Shown piece by piece: positions 3,641 through 20,254 of a stretch of 64,000 nt of DNA. Source of the DNA: Nitrospirota bacterium (GTDB taxonomy: Bacteria > Nitrospirota > Thermodesulfovibrionia > Thermodesulfovibrionales > Dissulfurispiraceae); NCBI GenBank assembly GCA_963710375.1, contig CAVPZX010000002.1:384001-448000 (forward strand). Reading direction: 5' to 3'. Each line of letters begins with the position of its first letter. The stretch's first letter is position 1. The position numbers and the translations under genes were made by a program. Under the pieces are notes generated by a model. It was given only the letters and a program-made list of their open reading frames with translations. It ran no database searches and was not told where the DNA came from.

Positions 3641-3730
3641 TGAGTGGAACTCTCCATATGCTTAAGGTCTTGAACCTATCAAACGCTTCTTCTGAGCGTC
3701 TGAATGCCCAAGTTATTTATTCGCAGACCC

Positions 3731-4060
3731 TTAAAATCTATTTAAAATTAAAAGAGCTAAAACAACATAAAGGGTGAACCCGGTTGTCAGCGAGGGTAGA
3801 AAACCGAGGCGCGGCGTCAAAAAAATAACGGCAAAAATATACGTAAACCATGGGAGCATCATCATGACCAGACCCTTGGCATAAGGCACAATGGCCTTCT
3901 GCCCTGCTTCATTATAAATCATAAGAAACGTAACAAGTGTGATGACCGGCATATTTGCCAAAAAAGCCCCAAGGAGGGGTCTAGCATGACTCGCAAAATA
4001 AGTGACAACACTTATCACTATCCCGCCGACTAAGAAATAAAAAACGTATTTTAATTCCAT
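3731..4060 (-). CDS. small integral membrane protein (DUF3147-like)
   Basis: 109 aa with about 4 hydrophobic helices, F-x-x-GG start and GAFLANMP motif. Confidence 0.65.
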   Translation of the reverse strand: MELKYVFYFLVGGIVISVVTYFASHARPLLGAFLANMPVITLVTFLMIYNEAGQKAIVPYAKGLVMMMLPWFTYIFAVIFLTPRLGFLPSLTTGFTLYVVLALLILNRF

Positions 4061-4104: not shown

Positions 4105-4286
4105 ATATGCGGTAGCGGGCCAGTTTGTTTTTGCTCTGTATCAATTAGCCGTTCAATTCAATCACTGGCCTGTATTTGGCATTATTTGTGGTCGCCACTT
4201 CTATATATGTGGACTCGGCGTTACTCGCCCACTACTGATAACCCAGGTGATACATAGCAAAAACAAACTGGTCCACTACCGCATAT
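4105..4286. repeat. ~182-bp MITE-like element A with 39-bp terminal inverted arms
   Basis: Left arm atatgcggtagcgggccagtttgtttttgctctgtatca matches the reverse complement of 4248-4286 with 3 mismatches. The internal core is shared with 51011-51191. Confidence 0.75.
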
Positions 4287-4317
4287 CCTGCAGATGTCAA
4301 AAAGGCAAAATTTTTTT

Positions 4318-4368
4318 AAGGGCGGCCAGGCTTTTTGCACTCTTACGAGCTACTTGCCTGCCGCCCTT
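4318..4368 (-). repeat. structured hairpin H7, near-identical copy of H2 (7447-7493)
   Basis: GGCGGCAGGC-AAGTA-GCTC-GTAA-GAGT-GCAAAAA-GCCTGGCCGCC on the minus strand. Confidence 0.75.
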
Positions 4369-4407
4369 GTTGCGATAGACTAATCCGGCCTTCAAGGATT
4401 TCTTTAT

Positions 4408-4725
4408 CTATTGGTGTTTTCGCGCAATCTTGTGGAGAAAGTCGTACACCTTTTCCCGCAAATACTTTGCTGTCCGCGACAGTGTCGCCAGCGCCTTTTG
4501 AATTTTTTCCAGGATACCGGGAAGAATGTCGTCGCACACATACACCCAGCCCTCGCTTATTCTCTCCCTAAGATATCCAAAACATCTTCCGATAGCTACG
4601 TGGAAATGTTCGATTACCCTTTCCAGAATATACGCGATATAAACTTCTACTGCGAGCCTGCCAAAGTTTGACAACTCCTCATGGTGGCTCAATATGTGTC
4701 CCACTACACGCTCGACTGCTTTCAT
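4408..4725 (-). CDS. hypothetical helical protein, 105 aa
   Basis: Strong RBS AGGAGG just upstream of the ATG, preceded by hairpin H6. No recognised family. Confidence 0.6.
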   Translation of the reverse strand: MKAVERVVGHILSHHEELSNFGRLAVEVYIAYILERVIEHFHVAIGRCFGYLRERISEGWVYVCDDILPGILEKIQKALATLSRTAKYLREKVYDFLHKIARKHQ

Positions 4726-4738
4726 TTATCCTCCTGTT

Positions 4739-4790
4739 AAAAAACCCGCCGGGGCGTTATACACTTCCAGGGCAGGCGTTAAGGGTTAGG
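4739..4790 (-). promoter_or_regulatory. hairpin + U-tract H6 upstream of the 105-aa ORF
   Basis: TAACCCTTAAC...CGCCCCGGCGGGTTTTTT followed by the RBS; related in sequence to H5. Confidence 0.6.
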
Positions 4791-4844
4791 GAAGCTGGAT
4801 TTTTTAGTCGGGTAGGTTAAATGTGGCACTTACAGGGCAACGGA

Positions 4845-5960
4845 CTATTCGTACTTCAAAACGAGCCCCTGAATATACTGCTCGAATTGGGCTGCGATTT
4901 CCCTGTCATACATCGTGATCATGTTCTCCGCGTTTTCGGTAGCGTTAGTAGAGAAGTTGAAACTTCCGGTCTTTACAACATACCCATCGACAACAAGCAA
5001 TTTGTCATGCATGAAATCATGGGGCCCATCTTCGCTATATGGCGTGGAATGCTTGGCAACCAATTCTTTACTTATGACATTCCACAGCTCGATTTTGGTC
5101 TTGCCGGCGCCATTGTTGCCCCTGTCAAAGGCCCTTACAATATGGTCCATCTCCGGCCCGTCATAGATGCCCCATATTTTTACGCCACGTCTTATTGCAG
5201 TGACCAGGGCATCCAAAACGTTACCGGAAGAAATAACCATCGAGGCAATGACGATCTCACTTTTCGCTGACGTTATCAGATCGGCGATACCTTGATCCAT
5301 AGCTGCGCCATCACCAGGTGCAAAATCTACTTCAACGTTGACCCCGTCGATTTCAGCATCGCCGTGATCGTCCTTGCCCGTTCCCGCAATGCGACCCGAC
5401 TCCCACAACTCCGCAAAGTCGGTCTCATAACATGCGGCGATATCCGGCGATTGCAGGATGACAATGTTGTTATCCTGAATGCTCCATGCGTCGGTGGTAA
5501 AATTGGCTGACCCCATCCAGACACGACGCGCGTCGGCGACTATGTACTTGCTGTGCATCAAGTGTCCACCGCCTTCAATCGGTAAGGCCTTGACATCAGG
5601 CGGAAGATCAAGTATTCCTTTGACCACCTTCACCTTTATATCTTGATGAAGACGCTGCAGGAAATTGCTGTCCGTTCCCGGAGCGGGGTCTTCTCCGGGT
5701 GCGGATTTTCGTTTCCTGTTTTGCTCGAAGTAGGCGACCCTAACATCCATTCCAGCTGCAGCCTTGTTGCTTAGAGCATCGATTACGATCTCAGCTTCGC
5801 CCTCATCAAGACGGAAATCGTAGATGGCGATGTGGACGCTCTCGCGAGCCTCGCCGACGAACTCACTGAATTTTTCAGTGACCTTCATTGCCTGTGCTTT
5901 TCTTGTATTTTCGGTATCCTGCGCTGTTAAAAGCGTCAGCTCAATATTGTTAGTCATCAT
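4845..5960 (-). CDS. phospholipase D superfamily protein with two HKD motifs (possible nuclease)
   Basis: HSKYIVAD...GSANFT and HDKLLVVD...GSFNFS. RBS AAGGAG. No signal peptide evident. Confidence 0.85.
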   Translation of the reverse strand: MMTNNIELTLLTAQDTENTRKAQAMKVTEKFSEFVGEARESVHIAIYDFRLDEGEAEIVIDALSNKAAAGMDVRVAYFEQNRKRKSAPGEDPAPGTDSNFLQRLHQDIKVKVVKGILDLPPDVKALPIEGGGHLMHSKYIVADARRVWMGSANFTTDAWSIQDNNIVILQSPDIAACYETDFAELWESGRIAGTGKDDHGDAEIDGVNVEVDFAPGDGAAMDQGIADLITSAKSEIVIASMVISSGNVLDALVTAIRRGVKIWGIYDGPEMDHIVRAFDRGNNGAGKTKIELWNVISKELVAKHSTPYSEDGPHDFMHDKLLVVDGYVVKTGSFNFSTNATENAENMITMYDREIAAQFEQYIQGLVLKYE

Positions 5961-5979
5961 TTTTTCTCCTTTTTGAGAT

Positions 5980-6029
5980 AAAAAAACCCGCTGGGCGTCA
6001 AACGCCGGACAGCGGGTGTTGAGGGTTAA
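5980..6029 (-). promoter_or_regulatory. hairpin + U-tract H5 upstream of the PLD gene
   Basis: TAACCCTCAACACCCGCTG...CGCCCAGCGGGTTTTTT followed by the RBS. Confidence 0.6.
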
Positions 6030-6051
6030 TGGTTGCTAAGATTTTGAACGC

Positions 6052-6120
6052 AAAAAAGCCGGTCACTCCGAAAACTCAAGCGCACAGAAAGCTGCGTGCC
6101 GAGTGTCCAGAATGCCGGCC
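6052..6120 (-). terminator. long imperfect hairpin + U-tract H4 downstream of the HD gene
   Basis: GCCGG-CATTCTGGA...TTCGGAGTG-A-CCGGC-TTTTTT. Confidence 0.6.
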
Positions 6121-6140
6121 TGAATGATGGTTTATACTTG

Positions 6141-7169
6141 TTAGTTGCTGCTCATTAACTGCACAGCAGCCTTTTCAAAACCGCCGTCACTCATTGAGGC
6201 GATGTAGTCCACTGCGATTCGCTGAGCCGGTGTTGTTCTGATATAAGATGCGCCGATGCCCTCAGCCCAGTTTCTGACTGGAAATAACTCTGATTCGGCA
6301 AGCTGTTCGCGGTACACCTGAAAGAGCATGTGGAACTTTCTCTCCCTCTCCTTCCTCAGTTCGTTTGAGATTGTTTTTGAGTAAATCGACCTGTAGCAGA
6401 ACTTCAGCAACCCTTCCAGTGCCTGGAATATGCTGTCAGAATAGCGGATAGCGGGTCTATTCCGGCTTTCACCTATAAGATCATTAATCAGGGCTTTCCG
6501 GATATTCGCCTCGCAGTTACCCAGCACAGCAACAGCTGCTTGAGGCAGGTCATCCCTTGTGATGAGCCCGAGCGAAATAGCATCCTCGATGTCCCTGCCG
6601 ATATAGGCGATAACATCCGAAGCCCTTACCACACAGCCTTCGAGCGTCATCGGCCTAATGTTCTTGCTAAAACCAGGCAACTCAAAACAGTTGTGAATTT
6701 CAGCGTGAAGCCTGCTGGCAGTTTTGTCGCAGTCCCGCTCAGACACCTGGCTAAGGGCCTCACCGTTATGGCATAGAACGCCATCTACTACAGACAGGGA
6801 AACGTTAAGGCCTTTTCCGCTCTTTTCAAGAAGCGTCAGGACTCTGGCGCTTTGGGCATTATGAGAAAAATAACCGCACCCTGAAGCTATACAGATATCA
6901 TTAAGATATTTTTCTCCCTCATGGCCATACGGCGGATGGCCGATATCGTGTGCAAGGGCTATAGCTTCGGCAAGACTTTCGTTAAGCCCCAGCGCCATGC
7001 TGATCTGCCGTGCTATATAACTGACAAACTGAACATGCAGCCACCTCCGTGTGATGCCTTCACCAGCAGACTCCGGAAATGCCTGCGTCTTATTGCATCT
7101 GGCATATGCCGCTGAATTAATGATCTCCCCTATTTCATAAAACAAGGTCTCTTTCCATATCTTTTTCAT
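6141..7169 (-). CDS. dgt: HD-domain dNTP triphosphohydrolase (dGTPase-like), divergent
   Basis: KTQAF, LHVQFVS, AIALAHDIGHPPYGHEGE, HN, TLEGCVVRASDVIAYIGRDIEDA, DYIASMSD. RBS GGAG supports the ATG at 7169 (MKKIW). Confidence 0.8.
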   Translation of the reverse strand: MKKIWKETLFYEIGEIINSAAYARCNKTQAFPESAGEGITRRWLHVQFVSYIARQISMALGLNESLAEAIALAHDIGHPPYGHEGEKYLNDICIASGCGYFSHNAQSARVLTLLEKSGKGLNVSLSVVDGVLCHNGEALSQVSERDCDKTASRLHAEIHNCFELPGFSKNIRPMTLEGCVVRASDVIAYIGRDIEDAISLGLITRDDLPQAAVAVLGNCEANIRKALINDLIGESRNRPAIRYSDSIFQALEGLLKFCYRSIYSKTISNELRKERERKFHMLFQVYREQLAESELFPVRNWAEGIGASYIRTTPAQRIAVDYIASMSDGGFEKAAVQLMSSN

Positions 7170-7188
7170 ACCGTTCTCCTTTCCAAAC

Positions 7189-7232
7189 AAAAAAGGCGGG
7201 CAGCCCGAAAAATCGAGCTGCCCGCCTTTTTT
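7189..7232. terminator. bidirectional terminator-like hairpin H3 just upstream of the dgt RBS
   Basis: aaaaaaggcgggcagcccgaaaaatcgagctgcccgcctttttt. Confidence 0.7.
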
Positions 7233-7250
7233 ATAGTTATTGCTGTTTGC

Positions 7251-7421
7251 CTATATTCTGCCTAAAACCCACTTCAGACTTTTCCTTTCTGCCTCAGTCA
7301 GTTCTGAAAGAGCCCTCACAACAAGCCAAGGGTTCTCCTTTATAAGAGTTTCAATCCTTTTATAGATGCCGGCTCCGGCAATTAGGCCCCTCTCTCTTGC
7401 AACGTGCTTGCCTCCGTTCAT
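7251..7421 (-). CDS. small hypothetical protein, 56 aa (below the ORF-track cutoff)
   Basis: Hand translation MNGGKHVARERGLIAGAGIYKRIETLIKENPWLVVRALSELTEAERKSLKWVLGRI. RBS AAAGGA. Fills the gap between H2 and H3. Confidence 0.55.
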   Translation of the reverse strand: MNGGKHVARERGLIAGAGIYKRIETLIKENPWLVVRALSELTEAERKSLKWVLGRI

Positions 7422-7446
7422 TGTGCACATCCTTTAAAAACAAAAA

Positions 7447-7493
7447 AAGGCGGCAGGCTTTTTCACTCATAAGAGTTACTTGCCTGCCGCCTT
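7447..7493 (-). promoter_or_regulatory. structured hairpin H2 + U-tract upstream of the 56-aa ORF
   Basis: GGCGGCAGGC-AAGTA-ACTC-TTAT-GAGT-GAAAAA-GCCTGCCGCC-TTTTTTT. Confidence 0.7.
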
Positions 7494-7556
7494 CGCTTAC
7501 TTCGTCTAAAAAGTTACTTCATCGCGCTAAAATTCCGAATGCCCTCCTCAATAAAC

Positions 7557-7600
7557 AAAAAAGGCACAGCCCCTTCCAAAGGTAGGGCAATGTGCTCTTT
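7557..7600 (-). promoter_or_regulatory. hairpin H1 + U-tract + RBS with no intact gene behind it
   Basis: GCACA-TT-GCCCT...GGGGC-TGTGC-CTTTTT then GAGGAGG; only ATG-AAG-TAA follows. Confidence 0.5.
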
Positions 7601-8118
7601 GCTGTAGCCGCCTATTCTGCAAACTCGTTAATAAAGTACTAACCTATTGTTTTTCAGTAAAAATAGAATACCTCTAAGGTGACAATTCCCCTACGCTGAT
7701 TTTTTGAGGTACTTTTGGCATGTCGCTTGAAGAGTGGATTGATCCAAGGTTTATATAAAACCTTATGAAAATCAATCAACAAAACTTTATAGAAATTGTA
7801 ATTAGATTTGACGGTTAAGGTTGTTTCTAAAAATAATGTAATGATAAAGGCCATCCCTGTAAATAGAAAAAATCCTTTAAAAACAAAACTAATTGAAATG
7901 TCGGCCAATTCTATTTAAAAAAAGTGAATCCCCCCCATTTGTCATAAAATGATGGACCAAACGTTAAGAAAACTCGGAAAAACAAGAATATCCATTTTAA
8001 AAAAACCATAAAAAACAAAAAACTCTTCGTTCAAATAAGAAGCACGCTAAACTCAGCACAGTAACATGATATGATTACGTTAATTTCTATTTGTCTTTCA
8101 TGTTGTTACCCGTTTCTC

Positions 8119-8184
8119 AATCACTCTTTCGTCACCTCTTCAGTCACTCGCTACTTTACGCTTTAGTCACTATGTCAGTCACCC
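8119..8184 (+). repeat. parC-like periodic repeats upstream of parM
   Basis: TCAC cores at 8121, 8132, 8144, (TTAC 8156), 8167 and 8179, spaced 11-12 bp. Confidence 0.5.
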
Positions 8185-8462
8185 GAACGCAATGAACTAT
8201 CAGTCCGCCTCCTGCCTTCCTTATGACCTACCACCCTGTAACGCTGAATGCACGACACTTGACGCTTTTAATGATGCTATCAACACGAAAGCTATAAGCT
8301 AACAAACAAGGCATCATGCCTCTTACTGAAAGCATATTGATAGCGAAAGTAATATCTCATAGCGTTCCATATTGAGCGCACAGCGTTATTGCTCAACAAT
8401 CCATGAAACATTAAGCATTTGCAACAGACCTATCATTTATTTCATATGGGAGGGAGAGTATT

Positions 8463-17306: not shown

Positions 17307-18824
17307 ATGCTGATAGTGGAAACAATCCGTAAGATTCGATGCGCGTACCATAGGGATAGGAAGTCGATTCGGCAAATAGCCCGAGAGTTGAATCTGTCCC
17401 GCAATACAGTTAAGAAGGTAATTCGGAGCGATGCCACCGAGTTCACGTATGATCGGAAAGATCAACCTCATCCAAAGCTTGCCCCATATCACGAGTTGCT
17501 ATCTGAATATCTTGCAACAGATGCCACGAAGCCGGACCGGGAACAACGGACTGCCATCCTGTTATTTGAGGAATTGCAGCGTCAGGGATTTGAAGGTGGA
17601 TATGACAGTGTCAGGCGGTATGTTCAGAAGTGGCGTAAAAGCGAGGGAGGCAGGAAGGTCACGGCATACATACCGCAGACCTTCGACCCTGGGGAAGCAT
17701 TCCAGTTCGACTGGAGCTATGAGCAGGTTGAACTCTGGGGTGTCGTTGTAACAATAAAAGTAGCCCACTTTCGCCTCTGCTACAGTCGGATGCCGTTTTG
17801 CGTTGCCTATGCCAGAGAGAGCCTTGAGATGGTGCTTGATGCCCATGTCCGGGCTTTTGAGTATTTTGGAGGCAGCTGCCGCAAGGGTATATATGACAAC
17901 CTTAAGACGGTAGTGACCAAGGTACTGATGGGAAAGGACCGGGTTTTAAACCGGCGTTTTCAGAACCTCTCATCGCACTACTTGTTTGAGCCTGTAGCCT
18001 GTACCCCAGCAGCGGGCTGGGAGAAAGGACAGGTAGAAAGTCAGGTCAAGTTCATCCGTAAGCGCCTATTCGTTCCCCGTTTGAAGTTCTCCGATCTTGA
18101 CGAACTGAACCGATGGTTGAGTGATAGCTGCCGAACTCTAGCCGCCGGGCATAAACACCCCGAGTTCAAAGACGGCACTGTGGCCGAATACTTCGCCAGG
18201 GAGAGGCAACAGTTGCTGATCCTGAGTTCCCCGTTTGACGGGTACAAAGAGACACCGGTTCGAGTATCACTTACTGCACTGGTTTCATTTGACCGCAATC
18301 GTTACAGTGTCAATGCTTCAGTTGTAGGCAGGACAGCCATGATACGGGCATATGCTGATAGGGTCGTCATTGTCCATGATGGTAACGTAATCGGAGATCA
18401 CCGACGCCAGTTCGGCCGGGACAAGATAATCTACGATGCCTGGCACTACGTTGAGGTACTGAAGCACAAACCGGGAGCCCTGCGTAACGGTGCTCCCTTT
18501 AAGGAATGGGCACTGCCTGAGCCGCTCATAGAGATACGGCAGCTACTCGGCAAGAGCCCAGATGGGGACCGGCAGTTCGTCGGGATCCTGAGTGCAGTAT
18601 CAATCTATGGCCTGGAAGCCGTGGTTACAGCATGTTCCGAAGCACTTTCTATCGGTGTGGCCAGCAGAGATGTGATACTTAACGCCTTGTCCCGCACACA
18701 CGATGACCCCGTAATATCCGAATACAAGATCCCACTCCATCTGCCTGAGCTAAAGTCCCTGCCTATTGCCAACTGCAGTCGTTACGACGATCTTCTGACG
18801 GGAGGTGAACATGCTACGAGATAA
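17307..18824 (+). CDS. istA: IS21 transposase IstA
   Basis: N-terminal HTH; QFDW, YDNLK, WEKGQVE DDE motifs. Confidence 0.95.
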
Positions 18825-19551
18825 ACTTCTGGAGGCGATGGAGAGCTTGAAGCTGTATGGCATGAGAAGTGTCTATGACGAGGTGTTCGCAGCCGGCATA
18901 AAGCAGCGACGCACGCCAGAAAAGATACTGCTGGATCTTCTGGAAGCTGAACTGGGAGAGCGGACTGCCCGGAGCATACGCTACCGCCTTGGGCAGGCAA
19001 GGTTCCCCGTAGACAAGGACATAGACCGCTTTGAGTTCGGCTCATCGCCGGTTAATGAGACCCAAATCCGTTCGCTTTACCAGGGCCAATTCCTCTCTGC
19101 AAATAGCAACGTTATCTTCGTTGGAGGCACTGGCACAGGTAAGTCTCACTTGGCGATAGCCATAGCCCGTCAGGCAATCAAAGACGGGAAAAGAGGGCGT
19201 TTCTTCAATGTGGTTGATCTGGTCAATCAGCTTGAACAAGAAAAACTGGCAGGACGTGGAGGCAAGCTGGCGGATAGCCTTGCACGGCTTCACCTTGTGG
19301 TGCTTGACGAATTGGGATATCTGCCGTTTTCAAAAAACGGCGGACAACTCTTGTTTCACTTGATATCAAAGCTCTACGAGCGAACCTCTCTGCTCATAAC
19401 TACCAATCTTACCTTCGGAGAATGGCCCCAGGTCTTTGGAGATAACAAGATGACTACTGCTCTTCTGGACAGAGTCACCCATCATTGTGATATCATCGAA
19501 ACAGGCAACGAGAGCTGGAGAATCAAGACCAGAAACTCAAAGAAAAACTAA
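18811..19551 (+). CDS. istB: IS21 helper ATPase IstB
   Basis: [36 protein letters not shown] before the ATG at 18811. Confidence 0.95.
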
Positions 19552-19714: not shown

Positions 19715-20254
19715 CTATTTAGAAATAGCCGACATAACTAGCTGACTGCATTTAAGCACCTTGCCGTATTCGCTAAAGTAAAGGTCAGCCTCTTCTCTGG
19801 ATCCGGCACATGCTATTACAACGCTGTGTGTGCCGTTCAAGCATTCAGCTTTGAAAAGTTTCATTCCCATAGAGCTGAGTTCAGAAACAAGCTCCTTAAG
19901 TATTTTATTTGAGAGTGTCCCTCTTCTCGTACACCCGTACATTTTCTCAAGCTCATTGATTGCAGGCGTCGAATAGTGCCCCTCCGCTATAATTCCCACT
20001 GCCTGCTTAAGTTTCGCCCTATCTTCCGGGTCTTTTATATAATCGTCCAACATACCTTCATAAGCTGCCAGGATCTTTGGCATATCACTCGAGACCCTTT
20101 TCTCCTTGTAACTGATATAAAGATACCCCGCACCTATTAGTGCCAGGATTAAAAGGAGAATCCCCATTACATGTATGCTCCCTCTACACCCCGCCAAGCA
20201 CTCGGCTGGGTAGGTGAGTGCCCGGCAGGGACCACGGTCATATAAATTTCTCAT
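19715..20254 (-). CDS. hypothetical membrane-anchored protein
   Basis: One TM segment (GILLLILALIGAGYLY). Start uncertain (20254 or the internal Met at 20167). Confidence 0.55.
   Translation of the reverse strand: MRNLYDRGPCRALTYPAECLAGCRGSIHVMGILLLILALIGAGYLYISYKEKRVSSDMPKILAAYEGMLDDYIKDPEDRAKLKQAVGIIAEGHYSTPAINELEKMYGCTRRGTLSNKILKELVSELSSMGMKLFKAECLNGTHSVVIACAGSREEADLYFSEYGKVLKCSQLVMSAISK

Follow-up and report, generated by a model that had tools for sequence, protein, structure and literature searches.

Predicted terminator hairpins ahead of cargo genes on a conjugative island of Dissulfurispiraceae, and a second RNA polymerase β′ subunit that may read through them

Introduction

Mobile elements are known to redirect the RNA polymerase of their hosts via sigma factors, activators or antiterminators, or to bring a whole polymerase with them. 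Phage-encoded sigma factors of the T4 gp55 type are divergent sigma-2 proteins with a single short promoter motif, and jumbo phages carry their own multisubunit polymerases. The locus described here likewise involves a mobile element bringing a divergent sigma-2 protein or polymerase subunits, but it differs in being a conjugative island with a cellular-type β′ and a sigma-like protein. No conjugative element with its own β′ was found in the literature (open-access full text). Upstream repeats of the CUP type are long (hundreds of bp), near-identical and placed before each operon.

The closest described systems share some features with the locus. As far as the account in PMC8191782 goes, the conAn system of pLS20 also operates on a conjugative element with many intrinsic terminators per operon, where read-through is needed and spurious expression is limited. 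However, its 23 terminators sit in the conjugation operon (PMC8191782), whereas here they precede each cargo gene; the host is also Gram-negative, the T4SS is F-type and the factor proposed is a core subunit of the polymerase. The put system of HK022 and the early and late operons of lambdoid phages have the same plan of a promoter, a short leader and terminator-preceded genes, and put acts via the β′ zinc-binding domain, the domain remodelled in the island β′. That phage uses the unmodified host β′, according to the part of PMC9378689 concerned. The EGeRS1 repeats of pLS20 are GC-rich, structured and promoterless, stand immediately upstream of RBSs within a conjugative element and block read-through, but in the description of PMC8708921 they are 420–750 bp long and 62–95% identical, while the present hairpins are of 30–64 nt, belong to four unrelated families and come without anti-restriction genes. 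Frpo/ssi leading-region anti-defence islands, as outlined in PMC11541004, also lie beside partition genes on conjugative elements with repeated structured DNA before small genes; here there are no anti-defence genes, the hairpins have terminator anatomy and a duplex promoter lies upstream.

The window analysed is a stretch of 64,000 nucleotides from the genome of a Nitrospirota bacterium.

Organisation of the hairpin array

The original prediction marked seven GC-rich hairpins (H1–H7), all on the minus strand, five of them with a nearby RBS. This description holds, a Shine–Dalgarno-like purine run being found 8–15 nt past the stem of H1, H2, H3, H5 and H6 and being absent after H4 (Table 1). 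The proposed hairpin–U-tract–RBS module stood as well, with a correction at H7. T-runs of 6–7 directly follow each of H1–H6, giving the GC-rich stem and U-tract of an intrinsic terminator; H4 has no RBS, and H7 is followed by CTTAAAAAAA instead of a U-tract, so that it is regarded as a decayed module. The near-identity of H2 and H7 (87.5% match over 48 nt) and the frame AACCCTYAAC...GCGGG common to H5 and H6 were recovered. The longest shared repeat is 48 nt, which speaks against repeats of the EGeRS1 or CUP type and against the suggested likeness to the conserved upstream repeats of IncN plasmids. Predicted folding energies are -18 (H1), -36 (H4) and -12 (H6) kcal/mol. In H2, both sides change in 5 of 13 pairs, and none of 500 shuffles was as high. 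On these sequence features, H1–H6 are likely to act as intrinsic terminators ahead of the array genes.

Such an arrangement is rare. Across the 3.19 Mb genome, strict calling yielded 105 terminators, of which only six were followed by an RBS, a start and an ORF of at least 40 aa; three of these six (H2, H3, H5) fall in the array, so the clustering is not due to chance. The array is the sole 3.5-kb segment with three strict calls, while with a looser caller (180 terminators) two segments reach three; both callers missed H1, H4 and H6. Further copies of the array hairpins were not found elsewhere in the genome. Rfam gave no family at gathering score for the hairpins or the leader, PLSDB had no match to this region, and the H2 pattern was absent from viral contigs. 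In 141 genomes of the order, an H2 covariance model returned, outside this genome, short generic hairpins of no more than 41 bits versus 86.6; clustered matches in G016 and G085 proved to be other arrangements. Across all GTDB species the exact H2 pattern occurs at seven loci, all in Nitrospirota records.

Table 1. Features of the array and of the island remnant in the window
Feature	Position	Strand	Remarks
Conserved end motif AAAAAATTTTGCC	4295..4317	minus	After the array; kept in this genome, six congeners and G194
H7, decayed H2 copy	4365-4321	minus	No U-tract; in G004 an intact copy, RBS and DUF6765 gene at the same place
orf105	4408..4725	minus	Unknown family; last core cassette
H6 hairpin, U-tract, RBS	4776-4745	minus	H5 family
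PLD-superfamily protein	4845..5960	minus	Two intact HxKxxxxD motifs; predicted nuclease
H5 hairpin, U-tract, RBS	6016-5987	minus	
H4 hairpin, U-tract	6119-6058	minus	RBS absent here, directly after H4 in G004
dGTPase-like HD protein	6141..7169	minus	342 aa; HD motif intact; below family cut-offs
H3 hairpin, U-tract, RBS	7226-7195	minus	Also called as terminator on the plus strand
orf56	7251..7421	minus	Small conserved protein, no family; dN/dS 0.07-0.21
H2 hairpin, U-tract, RBS	7491-7449	minus	10-bp stem, AGUA/GAA internal loop, inner tetraloop
H1 hairpin, U-tract, RBS	7595-7564	minus	Own gene missing here
Conserved leader	7718..7828	minus	Hairpin 7777-7737, then GCGACA (7729-7718)
Predicted host sigma70-type promoter	7863-7835	minus	Heads the array; TTTACA-17-TACATT here
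AAGTAATAT element motif	8347..8355	plus	Ahead of parM
ParM-like actin ATPase	8463-9446	plus	
Putative ParR partner	9450-9782	plus	
C-terminal stub of island β′ (rpoC) paralogue	13479..13676	minus	Remainder missing; 80% to G005 protein residues 1022-1088
Island pilus-region remnant gene	15611..16381	minus	76% identity to G005; upstream AAGTAATAT at 16830
Deletion-fusion ORF	19715..20254	minus	C-terminal half of sigma-like protein, no sigma-2 domain

Array genes and their conservation

The cargo is predicted to consist of DNA- and nucleotide-destroying enzymes, namely nucleases and a dNTPase. Anti-defence families were not found among it. An anti-phage dGTPase and DISARM DrmC were considered and set aside, with scores of 104 and 82 bits against family cut-offs of 400 and 133 bits and no DISARM partners in the array. 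An Atlas search with orf56 gave no usable match. In most relatives a gene for a 53-aa membrane peptide, missing here, precedes orf56, and downstream of H1 in G007 lies a gene whose 103-aa product begins much like a signal peptide. The end motif could mark either the end of the element or the next promoter.

Related genomes were searched as the original prediction had advised, and the array was found in eight of nine congeners (Dissulfurispiraceae), adjoining ParMR. The anticipated modularity was borne out: hairpin types and cassettes are swapped between relatives, the dGTPase-like gene has two exchangeable alleles within the genus, two EEP-family genes stand in place of the PLD gene in four related arrays, and G005 has lost the hairpin ahead of the dGTPase. 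The idea of recent variable cargo was not, as the core gene order is fixed throughout the genus. The dGTPase and PLD genes of this genome show dN/dS of 0.17–0.27 against congeners, compared with 0.23 between congeners. In this genus and in a second one orf56 directly follows the first terminators.

Promoter and leader of the array

The promoter reads TTTACA-17-TATAGT in most congeners. A site with the 17-bp spacing is present in all 13 homologous regions, with a varying spacer sequence, and its distance to the leader hairpin is fixed in the 12 regions where this could be anchored. The second genus keeps the 7-bp base of the leader hairpin and GCGACA. The predicted fold of the leader is weak (alignment energies of -7.9 and -3.4 kcal/mol; both-side change in 1 of 16 pairs), and it is a candidate antitermination RNA or oriT.

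Promoters downstream of each hairpin would have contradicted the original prediction. The stem-to-RBS distance within modules is 8–34 nt, and the full element motif AAGTAATAT (score 12 or more) was found in none of 44 modules. Since neither room nor a motif for per-gene promoters was found, expression of the array likely needs read-through of the terminators.

The conjugative island and its remnant

The suspected plasmid or ICE origin agrees with the context in relatives, where the array forms the end of a conjugative island with an F-type T4SS, type IV pili, a Replic_Relax-like relaxase and ParMR. The G005 island encodes TraE, TraK, TrbI, TraV, TraU, TraC and a coupling protein, and thus unites the T4SS, coupling protein and relaxase of an ICE; the relaxase-like protein scores 25.1 bits, just below the Replic_Relax cut-off of 25.3. 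In the present genome the island is a decayed remnant in which T4SS, coupling protein and relaxase are absent. Of the relaxase, oriT or antiterminator that the original prediction proposed to look for elsewhere, a relaxase-like gene exists on relatives' islands and is lacking here, and no known antiterminator family was detected in 46 island proteins. GTGAC repeats lie at about 8090–8180, near the parM motif. The ParM of G008 belongs to another element.

The parallel with pLS20-type operons does not extend to the transfer operons, which are nearly free of terminators: sense-strand calls number 0 in G005, G009 and G006, 1 in G003 and 2 each in G002 and G007 (per 35–70 kb). An integron cassette array was rejected, as no tyrosine recombinase (PF00589) occurs on or near the island in five genomes, and attC-type ends, judged by eye against the attC consensus, were not seen. 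An empty integration site was searched for and not found.

Island β′ and sigma-like protein

Intact islands encode a second RNA polymerase β′ and a protein with sigma region 2; these genes are not visible in the window because stubs alone remain. The second β′ occurs at the same locus in seven of nine congeners, as an open frame in G001 (cut by the contig end), G002, G005, G007 and G009 and split over frames in G003 and G006. It has the hallmarks of a bacterial β′ (NADFDGD, two zinc sites, bridge helix, trigger loop) and keeps, besides NADFDGD, the catalytic residues R731, R933 and H936. However, the bridge helix contains two prolines, the clamp helices, lid and zipper are altered, and in all six lineage sequences SI3 (3–16 residues versus about 180 in the host), the jaw (3–16 versus 66) and the basic residues of the zinc domain (0–2 versus 6) are reduced. 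Its dN/dS is 0.11–0.20. A quick tree placed the island β′ in one clade separate from host β′, with long branches of G050 and G011 that may attract. In PLSDB, 67 records with rpoC were counted in bulk, none of them reaching 60% identity. Second rpoC matches in G013 (C203) and G050 (C135) were not counted, having rpoB-like sequence beside them. A relaxase ahead of the second β′ is not a general rule, since G011 has an EcoRI-type system at that place. No island β or α is present among annotated island genes, which implies a hybrid with host subunits.

The sigma-like protein falls below the Pfam cut-off. Its region 2 aligns without gaps, by profile, to the corresponding region in four proteins of sigma70 type, and named sigma entries fill 18 of the top 19 rows of a fold search (best Z 8.4, rmsd 3.0 over 78 residues). 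Taken from four angles, the evidence identifies a sigma70-family region 2. The C-terminal domain, barely covered by the fold search, is modelled as alpha/beta; sigma70 proteins carry a helix-turn-helix in region 4. Complex prediction for residues 1–345 of the island β′ with the sigma-like protein scored 0.02 and 0.09, giving no answer either way. Relatives of the sigma-like protein were not found in viral contigs.

The short motif AAGTAATAT precedes the transfer operons; six islands totalling 319 kb contain 40 sense-strand sites, versus about 3 expected. In a blind 8-mer test AAGTAATA took first or second place for G006 and G007 but fell outside the top ten in G005. In the second genus the sigma-like gene occurs without AAGTAATAT, and no replacement motif was found there; TCTATAAG, top of the blind test, was rejected as a promoter motif, lying mostly inside coding sequence. 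Within the array, AAGTAA, a six-letter part of the element motif, occurs in the loop of H2, and a partial AAGTAAYTT site lies 27–30 nt ahead of H2.

How the terminators might be read through

Our main reading, to which we assign a probability of about 0.38, is that the island's own altered β′ builds a polymerase reading through the terminators of a single cargo operon. The host polymerase would start at the sigma70-type promoter and stop at H1/H2, leaving the harmful cargo silent. Upon induction of the island, its β′ would replace host β′ in some cores, and the hybrid core would pair with the island sigma at AAGTAATAT promoters. As its pauses at hairpins would be too slight for termination, this polymerase would express the array together with the transfer programme; the entry point may be the partial AAGTAAYTT site. 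In the present genome, where the machinery is lost, the array would stay off. More tentatively, we suggest a full subunit swap, in which the stripped-down β′ and a sigma-2-only factor would form a hybrid polymerase with private AAGTAATAT promoters that resists intrinsic termination, and terminators obeyed by the host would lock a nuclease/dNTPase arm that only the hybrid opens.

Terminator density tracks β′ type: 3–5 terminators are called per array in the genus without SI3 and jaw, whereas in G018, G050 and G011, which keep both, the calls are one before the first gene (as in G193 and G194), one, and none in 40 kb, respectively; the comparison draws on two or three lineages that are related and does not amount to a statistical test. 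Loss of SI3, jaw or positive exit-channel residues would be expected to lower pausing and termination. SI3 and the jaw are parts of the swivel module, and the positive residues of the exit channel are thought to aid hairpin formation, according to the relevant part of PMC9378689. A NusG paralogue of the RfaH/LoaP/UpxY kind was rejected as antiterminator, as PF02357 has no match on the islands or beside the operon in five genomes; matches exist on other contigs, and a distant host paralogue could act in trans.

Several observations oppose the hybrid polymerase. This genome has lost the β′ and the sigma-2 domain, yet the array ORFs and H1–H6 are intact and dN/dS is congener-like, so either the loss is recent or the array does without β′. 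The only strong promoter is of host sigma70 type and the clamp helices, lid and zipper are altered, so the island β′ may not start there. The modules have no full AAGTAATAT site, the second genus no AAGTAATAT at all, and G005 has lost a hairpin. Finally, clamp conformation affects termination mainly via elongation rate, as the passage concerned of 10.1101/453969 has it, so that the lost domains need not abolish termination.

It is possible, if doubtful, that the conserved leader RNA (put/EAR/conAn2-like) antiterminates the host polymerase instead, perhaps aided by a processivity factor such as orf56 or a different small protein of the island, in which case the β′/sigma pair would run the transfer operons only. 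The succession of promoter, leader and terminators is the classic plan of processive antitermination, promoter and leader are conserved in two genera, as is the place of orf56, and the array is intact where β′ is lost. H2 keeps its inner loop but varies in its outer stem, as an RNA bound by a protein would. Against this, the leader folds weakly and has no Rfam match, none of the island proteins belongs to a known antiterminator family, and orf56, sitting behind two terminators, could not alone start the switch.

The hairpins would less probably be leaky attenuators or processing or stabilising stem-loops that set a falling expression gradient along an ordinary operon without an antiterminator. 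Their types are interchangeable and losable, which suggests dose tuning, and small peptides come first and likely toxic enzymes later. But stems of -18 to -36 kcal/mol with 6–7 U in series would leave very little distal transcript, yet the distal genes are under purifying selection. It is improbable that a weak promoter overlapping the hairpin drives each gene, the hairpins merely ending the upstream unit: AAGTAA lies within the H2 loop and apparent ordinary promoters follow similar terminators in G016 and G085, but the gap between stem and RBS is short and the H3, H4 and H5/H6 families have no motif in or after the stem. Unlikely, and the least probable, is the leading region read from transferred ssDNA that the original prediction allowed for, with leader hairpin and GCGACA as oriT and the hairpins as Frpo-like promoters or recombination sites, for although an inverted repeat and short conserved word beside ParMR resemble an oriT and the island carries a relaxase-like gene and a coupling protein, the short hairpins have U-tracts and RNA-type (GNRA/UUCG) inner loops, a double-stranded sigma70-type promoter heads a cargo without anti-defence families, neither attC-type ends nor a nearby integrase is seen, and a leader acting as oriT in the usual orientation would bring the array in as the non-template strand.

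Implications

The hairpin array alone would be a fresh variation on a known kind of system, and the greater novelty would lie in the β′ and sigma content of the island. If read-through is driven by the leader, the finding of the β′/sigma island is unaffected, and the array would add an antitermination system that is new for a Gram-negative element. A natural β′ without SI3, jaw and the basic patch of the zinc domain offers a test of the surfaces needed for intrinsic termination, and it is a candidate orthogonal polymerase. Judging from its genes, the island may assemble a polymerase of its own that is not halted by these stops; if so, one replacement core subunit with a matching sigma on a conjugative island would be a further strategy by which mobile elements redirect transcription.

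The hairpin array and its conservation

The hairpin array of the minus strand is real and conserved, and belongs to a larger, unusual system that survives in the window as a remnant. Reading the strand and folding each unit confirmed the seven hairpins of the original prediction, five of them with a ribosome-binding site (RBS) no more than 15 nt away. The predicted U-tract is present in H1-H6, which end in six or seven T, but not in H7, which is, in agreement with the reported near-identity, an 87.5% copy of H2. A strict caller found 105 terminators in the whole genome (3.19 Mb); six are followed by an RBS, a start codon and an ORF, and three of these six are in the array. A looser caller found 180, with one other window equally dense. 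Both callers understate the locus, because they missed H1, H4 and H6. Intrinsic terminators are rare in this genome (0.03 per kb by the callers used), so the array stands out. No further copies of its hairpins were found in this genome, and no Rfam family matched them.

Each of the 13 homologous upstream regions examined has a σ70-type site, whose spacer is always 17 bp long but varies in sequence. In the 12 with an anchored leader hairpin, it lies 85-88 nt upstream of that hairpin in this genus and 46-47 nt upstream in the second genus with homologous arrays. The gap from stem to RBS, where an RBS was found, is 8-34 nt in 44 modules chosen by pattern (the list is incomplete and lacks, for example, the window's H3 and H5). 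This is too short for each gene to have its own promoter downstream of its hairpin, and suggests that the array would depend on one promoter and its distal genes on read-through, as had been supposed.

The array was matched in eight of nine congeners (G001-G009), the exception being G008, whose genome is 74% complete. The gene order is fixed: an optional secreted protein, a membrane peptide, orf56, dGTPase, PLD or an EEP pair, and orf105. The PLD variant occurs in this genome and seven congeners, two EEP-family genes take its place in G007 and three metagenome loci, and from one metagenome array the dGTPase is missing. This enzyme exists as two alleles, which share 77-90% and 52-57% identity with the copy of this genome and do not follow ParM divergence, which points to probable cassette replacement among relatives. 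The idea of modular cargo is supported, as cassette exchange, by these alleles and by the PLD/EEP swap, but not by the fixed order. The hairpin type ahead of a given gene also varies: the dGTPase is preceded by an H3-type hairpin here, an H2-type in G001, G004 and G009, an H4-type in G006 and none in G005. The gene missing after H1 here is present in G007, and the intact form of H7 leads into DUF6765 (G004). In 14 related rows both sides of the H2 stem change in 5 of 13 pairs (0 of 500 shuffles reached as many, a figure that is not a probability because the rows are related), and the inner loop keeps AGUA/GAA, some copies carrying GUAA or UUCG tetraloops; together, covariation and loop conservation favour a structure that would act at the RNA level. 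We take the inner loop to resemble the loop-E motif.

Features of the window and of extracted loci (L numbers) in related genomes
Feature	Location	Remarks
End of second dispersed repeat family, TGAATGCACAAGTTATTTATTCGC...	window 3701-3736	Dozens of genomic copies, often inverted pairs ~120-150 bp apart
MITE-like element	window 4105-4286	170-180 bp, 33-39 bp terminal inverted repeats; just past array end; >15 near-full copies genome-wide
AAGTA[AG]TA[TC] site	window 8347	
MoaD, ORF, aldehyde ferredoxin oxidoreductase, thioredoxin-like gene	window 9820-13285	Between parR and β′ stub; first three at same position in G003
Small toxin-antitoxin-like genes (VapC/VapB, DUF2283 pair)	window 13701-15614	Fill decayed island
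Two-gene insertion sequence, presumably IS21-like	window 17307-19551	505-aa transposase-like protein, 248-aa ATPase; within island remnant, adjoining deletion that took transfer genes
Restriction-modification and other defence-like genes	L015:8387-11853, L099:10210-11574, L013:4074-8019	Gathered past array end in several relatives
37-bp palindromic insertion in H5 bulge	L013:1870-1940, L021:11350-11420	G001 and G009; base stem and U-tract undamaged
GGCGGC...GCCGCC-TTTTTTGTTTG terminator arrays ahead of small genes	L062 (G085:C22:31232-34272), L063 (G016:C1:2112325-2115365)	G085: small genes resemble toxin-antitoxin genes; G016: units in tandem
Different ParM-bearing element	L123 (G008:C2:243000-250000)	Five terminator-like hairpins between small genes; ribonucleotide-reductase-like ORF
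More distant β′ paralogues	L041 (G050:C195), L039 (G011:C98), L045 (G012:C58)	Adjoin ParB-like genes, restriction-modification systems, lysozyme; in G012 (stub only) an integrase

The conjugative island and its remnant

In G005 the array ends a block of ~50 kb encoding ImmA-like and HTH regulators, TraE/K/B/V/U/F/C, a secretin, pilus ATPases, a coupling protein, a Replic_Relax-like protein, a paralogue of the RNA polymerase β′ subunit and ParMR; similar blocks occur in G002, G003, G006, G007 and G009. The Tra genes and coupling protein support the proposed plasmid or ICE origin, and the Replic_Relax-like protein of G005 is a candidate for the relaxase that was to be sought. This genome has kept no more of the island than stubs, which comprise a pilus gene, the final 66 codons of β′ and the part of a sigma-like gene that encodes its C-terminal half. 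Neither a tyrosine integrase nor a NusG paralogue was found on the island in the five genomes searched for each, which leaves its present mobility putative.

The array would work like processive-antitermination operons (conAn, put), and this layout is what stands of the suggested parallel with pLS20. The conAn terminators are located inside the conjugation operon, 23 being predicted for pLS20 (PMC8191782), whereas the island transfer regions have 0-2 sense-strand calls per 35-70 kb; on terminator location, a conAn-type system was rejected. EGeRS1 likewise has a read-through block ahead of RBSs, but differs in size and cargo. Frpo islands, to which it had also been likened, are an unlikely fit. 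In the terminator arrays of G085 and G016, the terminator tail seems to supply the -35 box of a downstream promoter.

Transcription factors of the island and proposed read-through

The second β′ is encoded by seven of nine congeners (two copies are split over frames, possibly by assembly error) and by G018, G011, G050, G193 and G194; with the more distant paralogues of G050, G011 and G012, the family extends beyond this genus. The second β′ retains its catalytic and zinc-binding residues, dN/dS being 0.11-0.20, and a quick tree placed the 13 island sequences on one side of a branch. The zipper, lid and clamp helices, which bind σ70, are remodelled in all of them. In the six sequences of this genus's lineage, SI3 and jaw are gone as well, and 0-2 residues of the zinc domain are basic, versus 6 in the host subunit. 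Losing these parts would be expected to lower pausing. According to PMC9378689, SI3 and jaw form part of the swivel module, and antitermination by put RNA goes through the zinc domain. No conjugative element with its own β′ was found in the literature searched (mainly open-access main texts) or in passages of PMC5512222; a prior mention is possible.

The sigma-like gene (250 aa) opens the transfer region; it was matched in 10 of the 68 genomes of the family and has 62 relatives among 50%-clusters. Against 350 other genomes of the phylum, its profile matched only four σ70-type proteins, gap-free over region 2; an atlas pointed to Sigma70_r2 clusters from viruses (34% of members), and the N-domain of the model matches sigma-2 structures with Z scores that reach 8.4, a modest value given that the domain is helical. 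This gene is present in G014, where a second β′ was not found. The motif AAGTA[AG]TA[TC], first spotted by eye in G005, has 40 sense-strand sites in 319 kb of six islands versus ~3 expected, mostly preceding operons; five of the ten antisense sites lie ahead of divergent parM. The second genus lacks it, and a search there for a substitute found none. We infer that the sigma-like factor reads this motif.

In the best explanation, the host polymerase would halt at H1/H2, leaving the cargo silent until read-through, to which the island β′ would be the key. We put the probability that this β′ enables read-through at roughly 40%. It is favoured because it is the only island transcription factor whose pause-related parts were lost, and because islands that keep those parts have one terminator or none at this place. 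A partial AAGTA[AG]TA[TC] motif lies 27-30 nt ahead of the first H2 in seven arrays. However, the array is intact in this genome despite the β′ loss, its strong promoter is of host type, and the lineage comparison is non-independent. Antitermination of the host polymerase, driven by the leader or by orf56, is nearly as likely; the leader hairpin and the downstream GCGACA are common to both genera, with weak folding.

Cargo of the array

Besides two small proteins of 56 and 105 aa, the array encodes a dGTPase-like protein with an HD domain and a PLD protein whose two HKD motifs are intact. Nuclease and dNTPase activities are predicted from family membership, and the scores of the dGTPase-like and PLD proteins stay below the thresholds for anti-phage dGTPases and for DrmC. 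A lytic transglycosylase is encoded in the equivalent arm of the second genus, and in G050 a lysozyme lies just upstream of an H2-like hairpin. This suggests, as a speculation, that the array cargo may be a late or self-destructive arm of the island.
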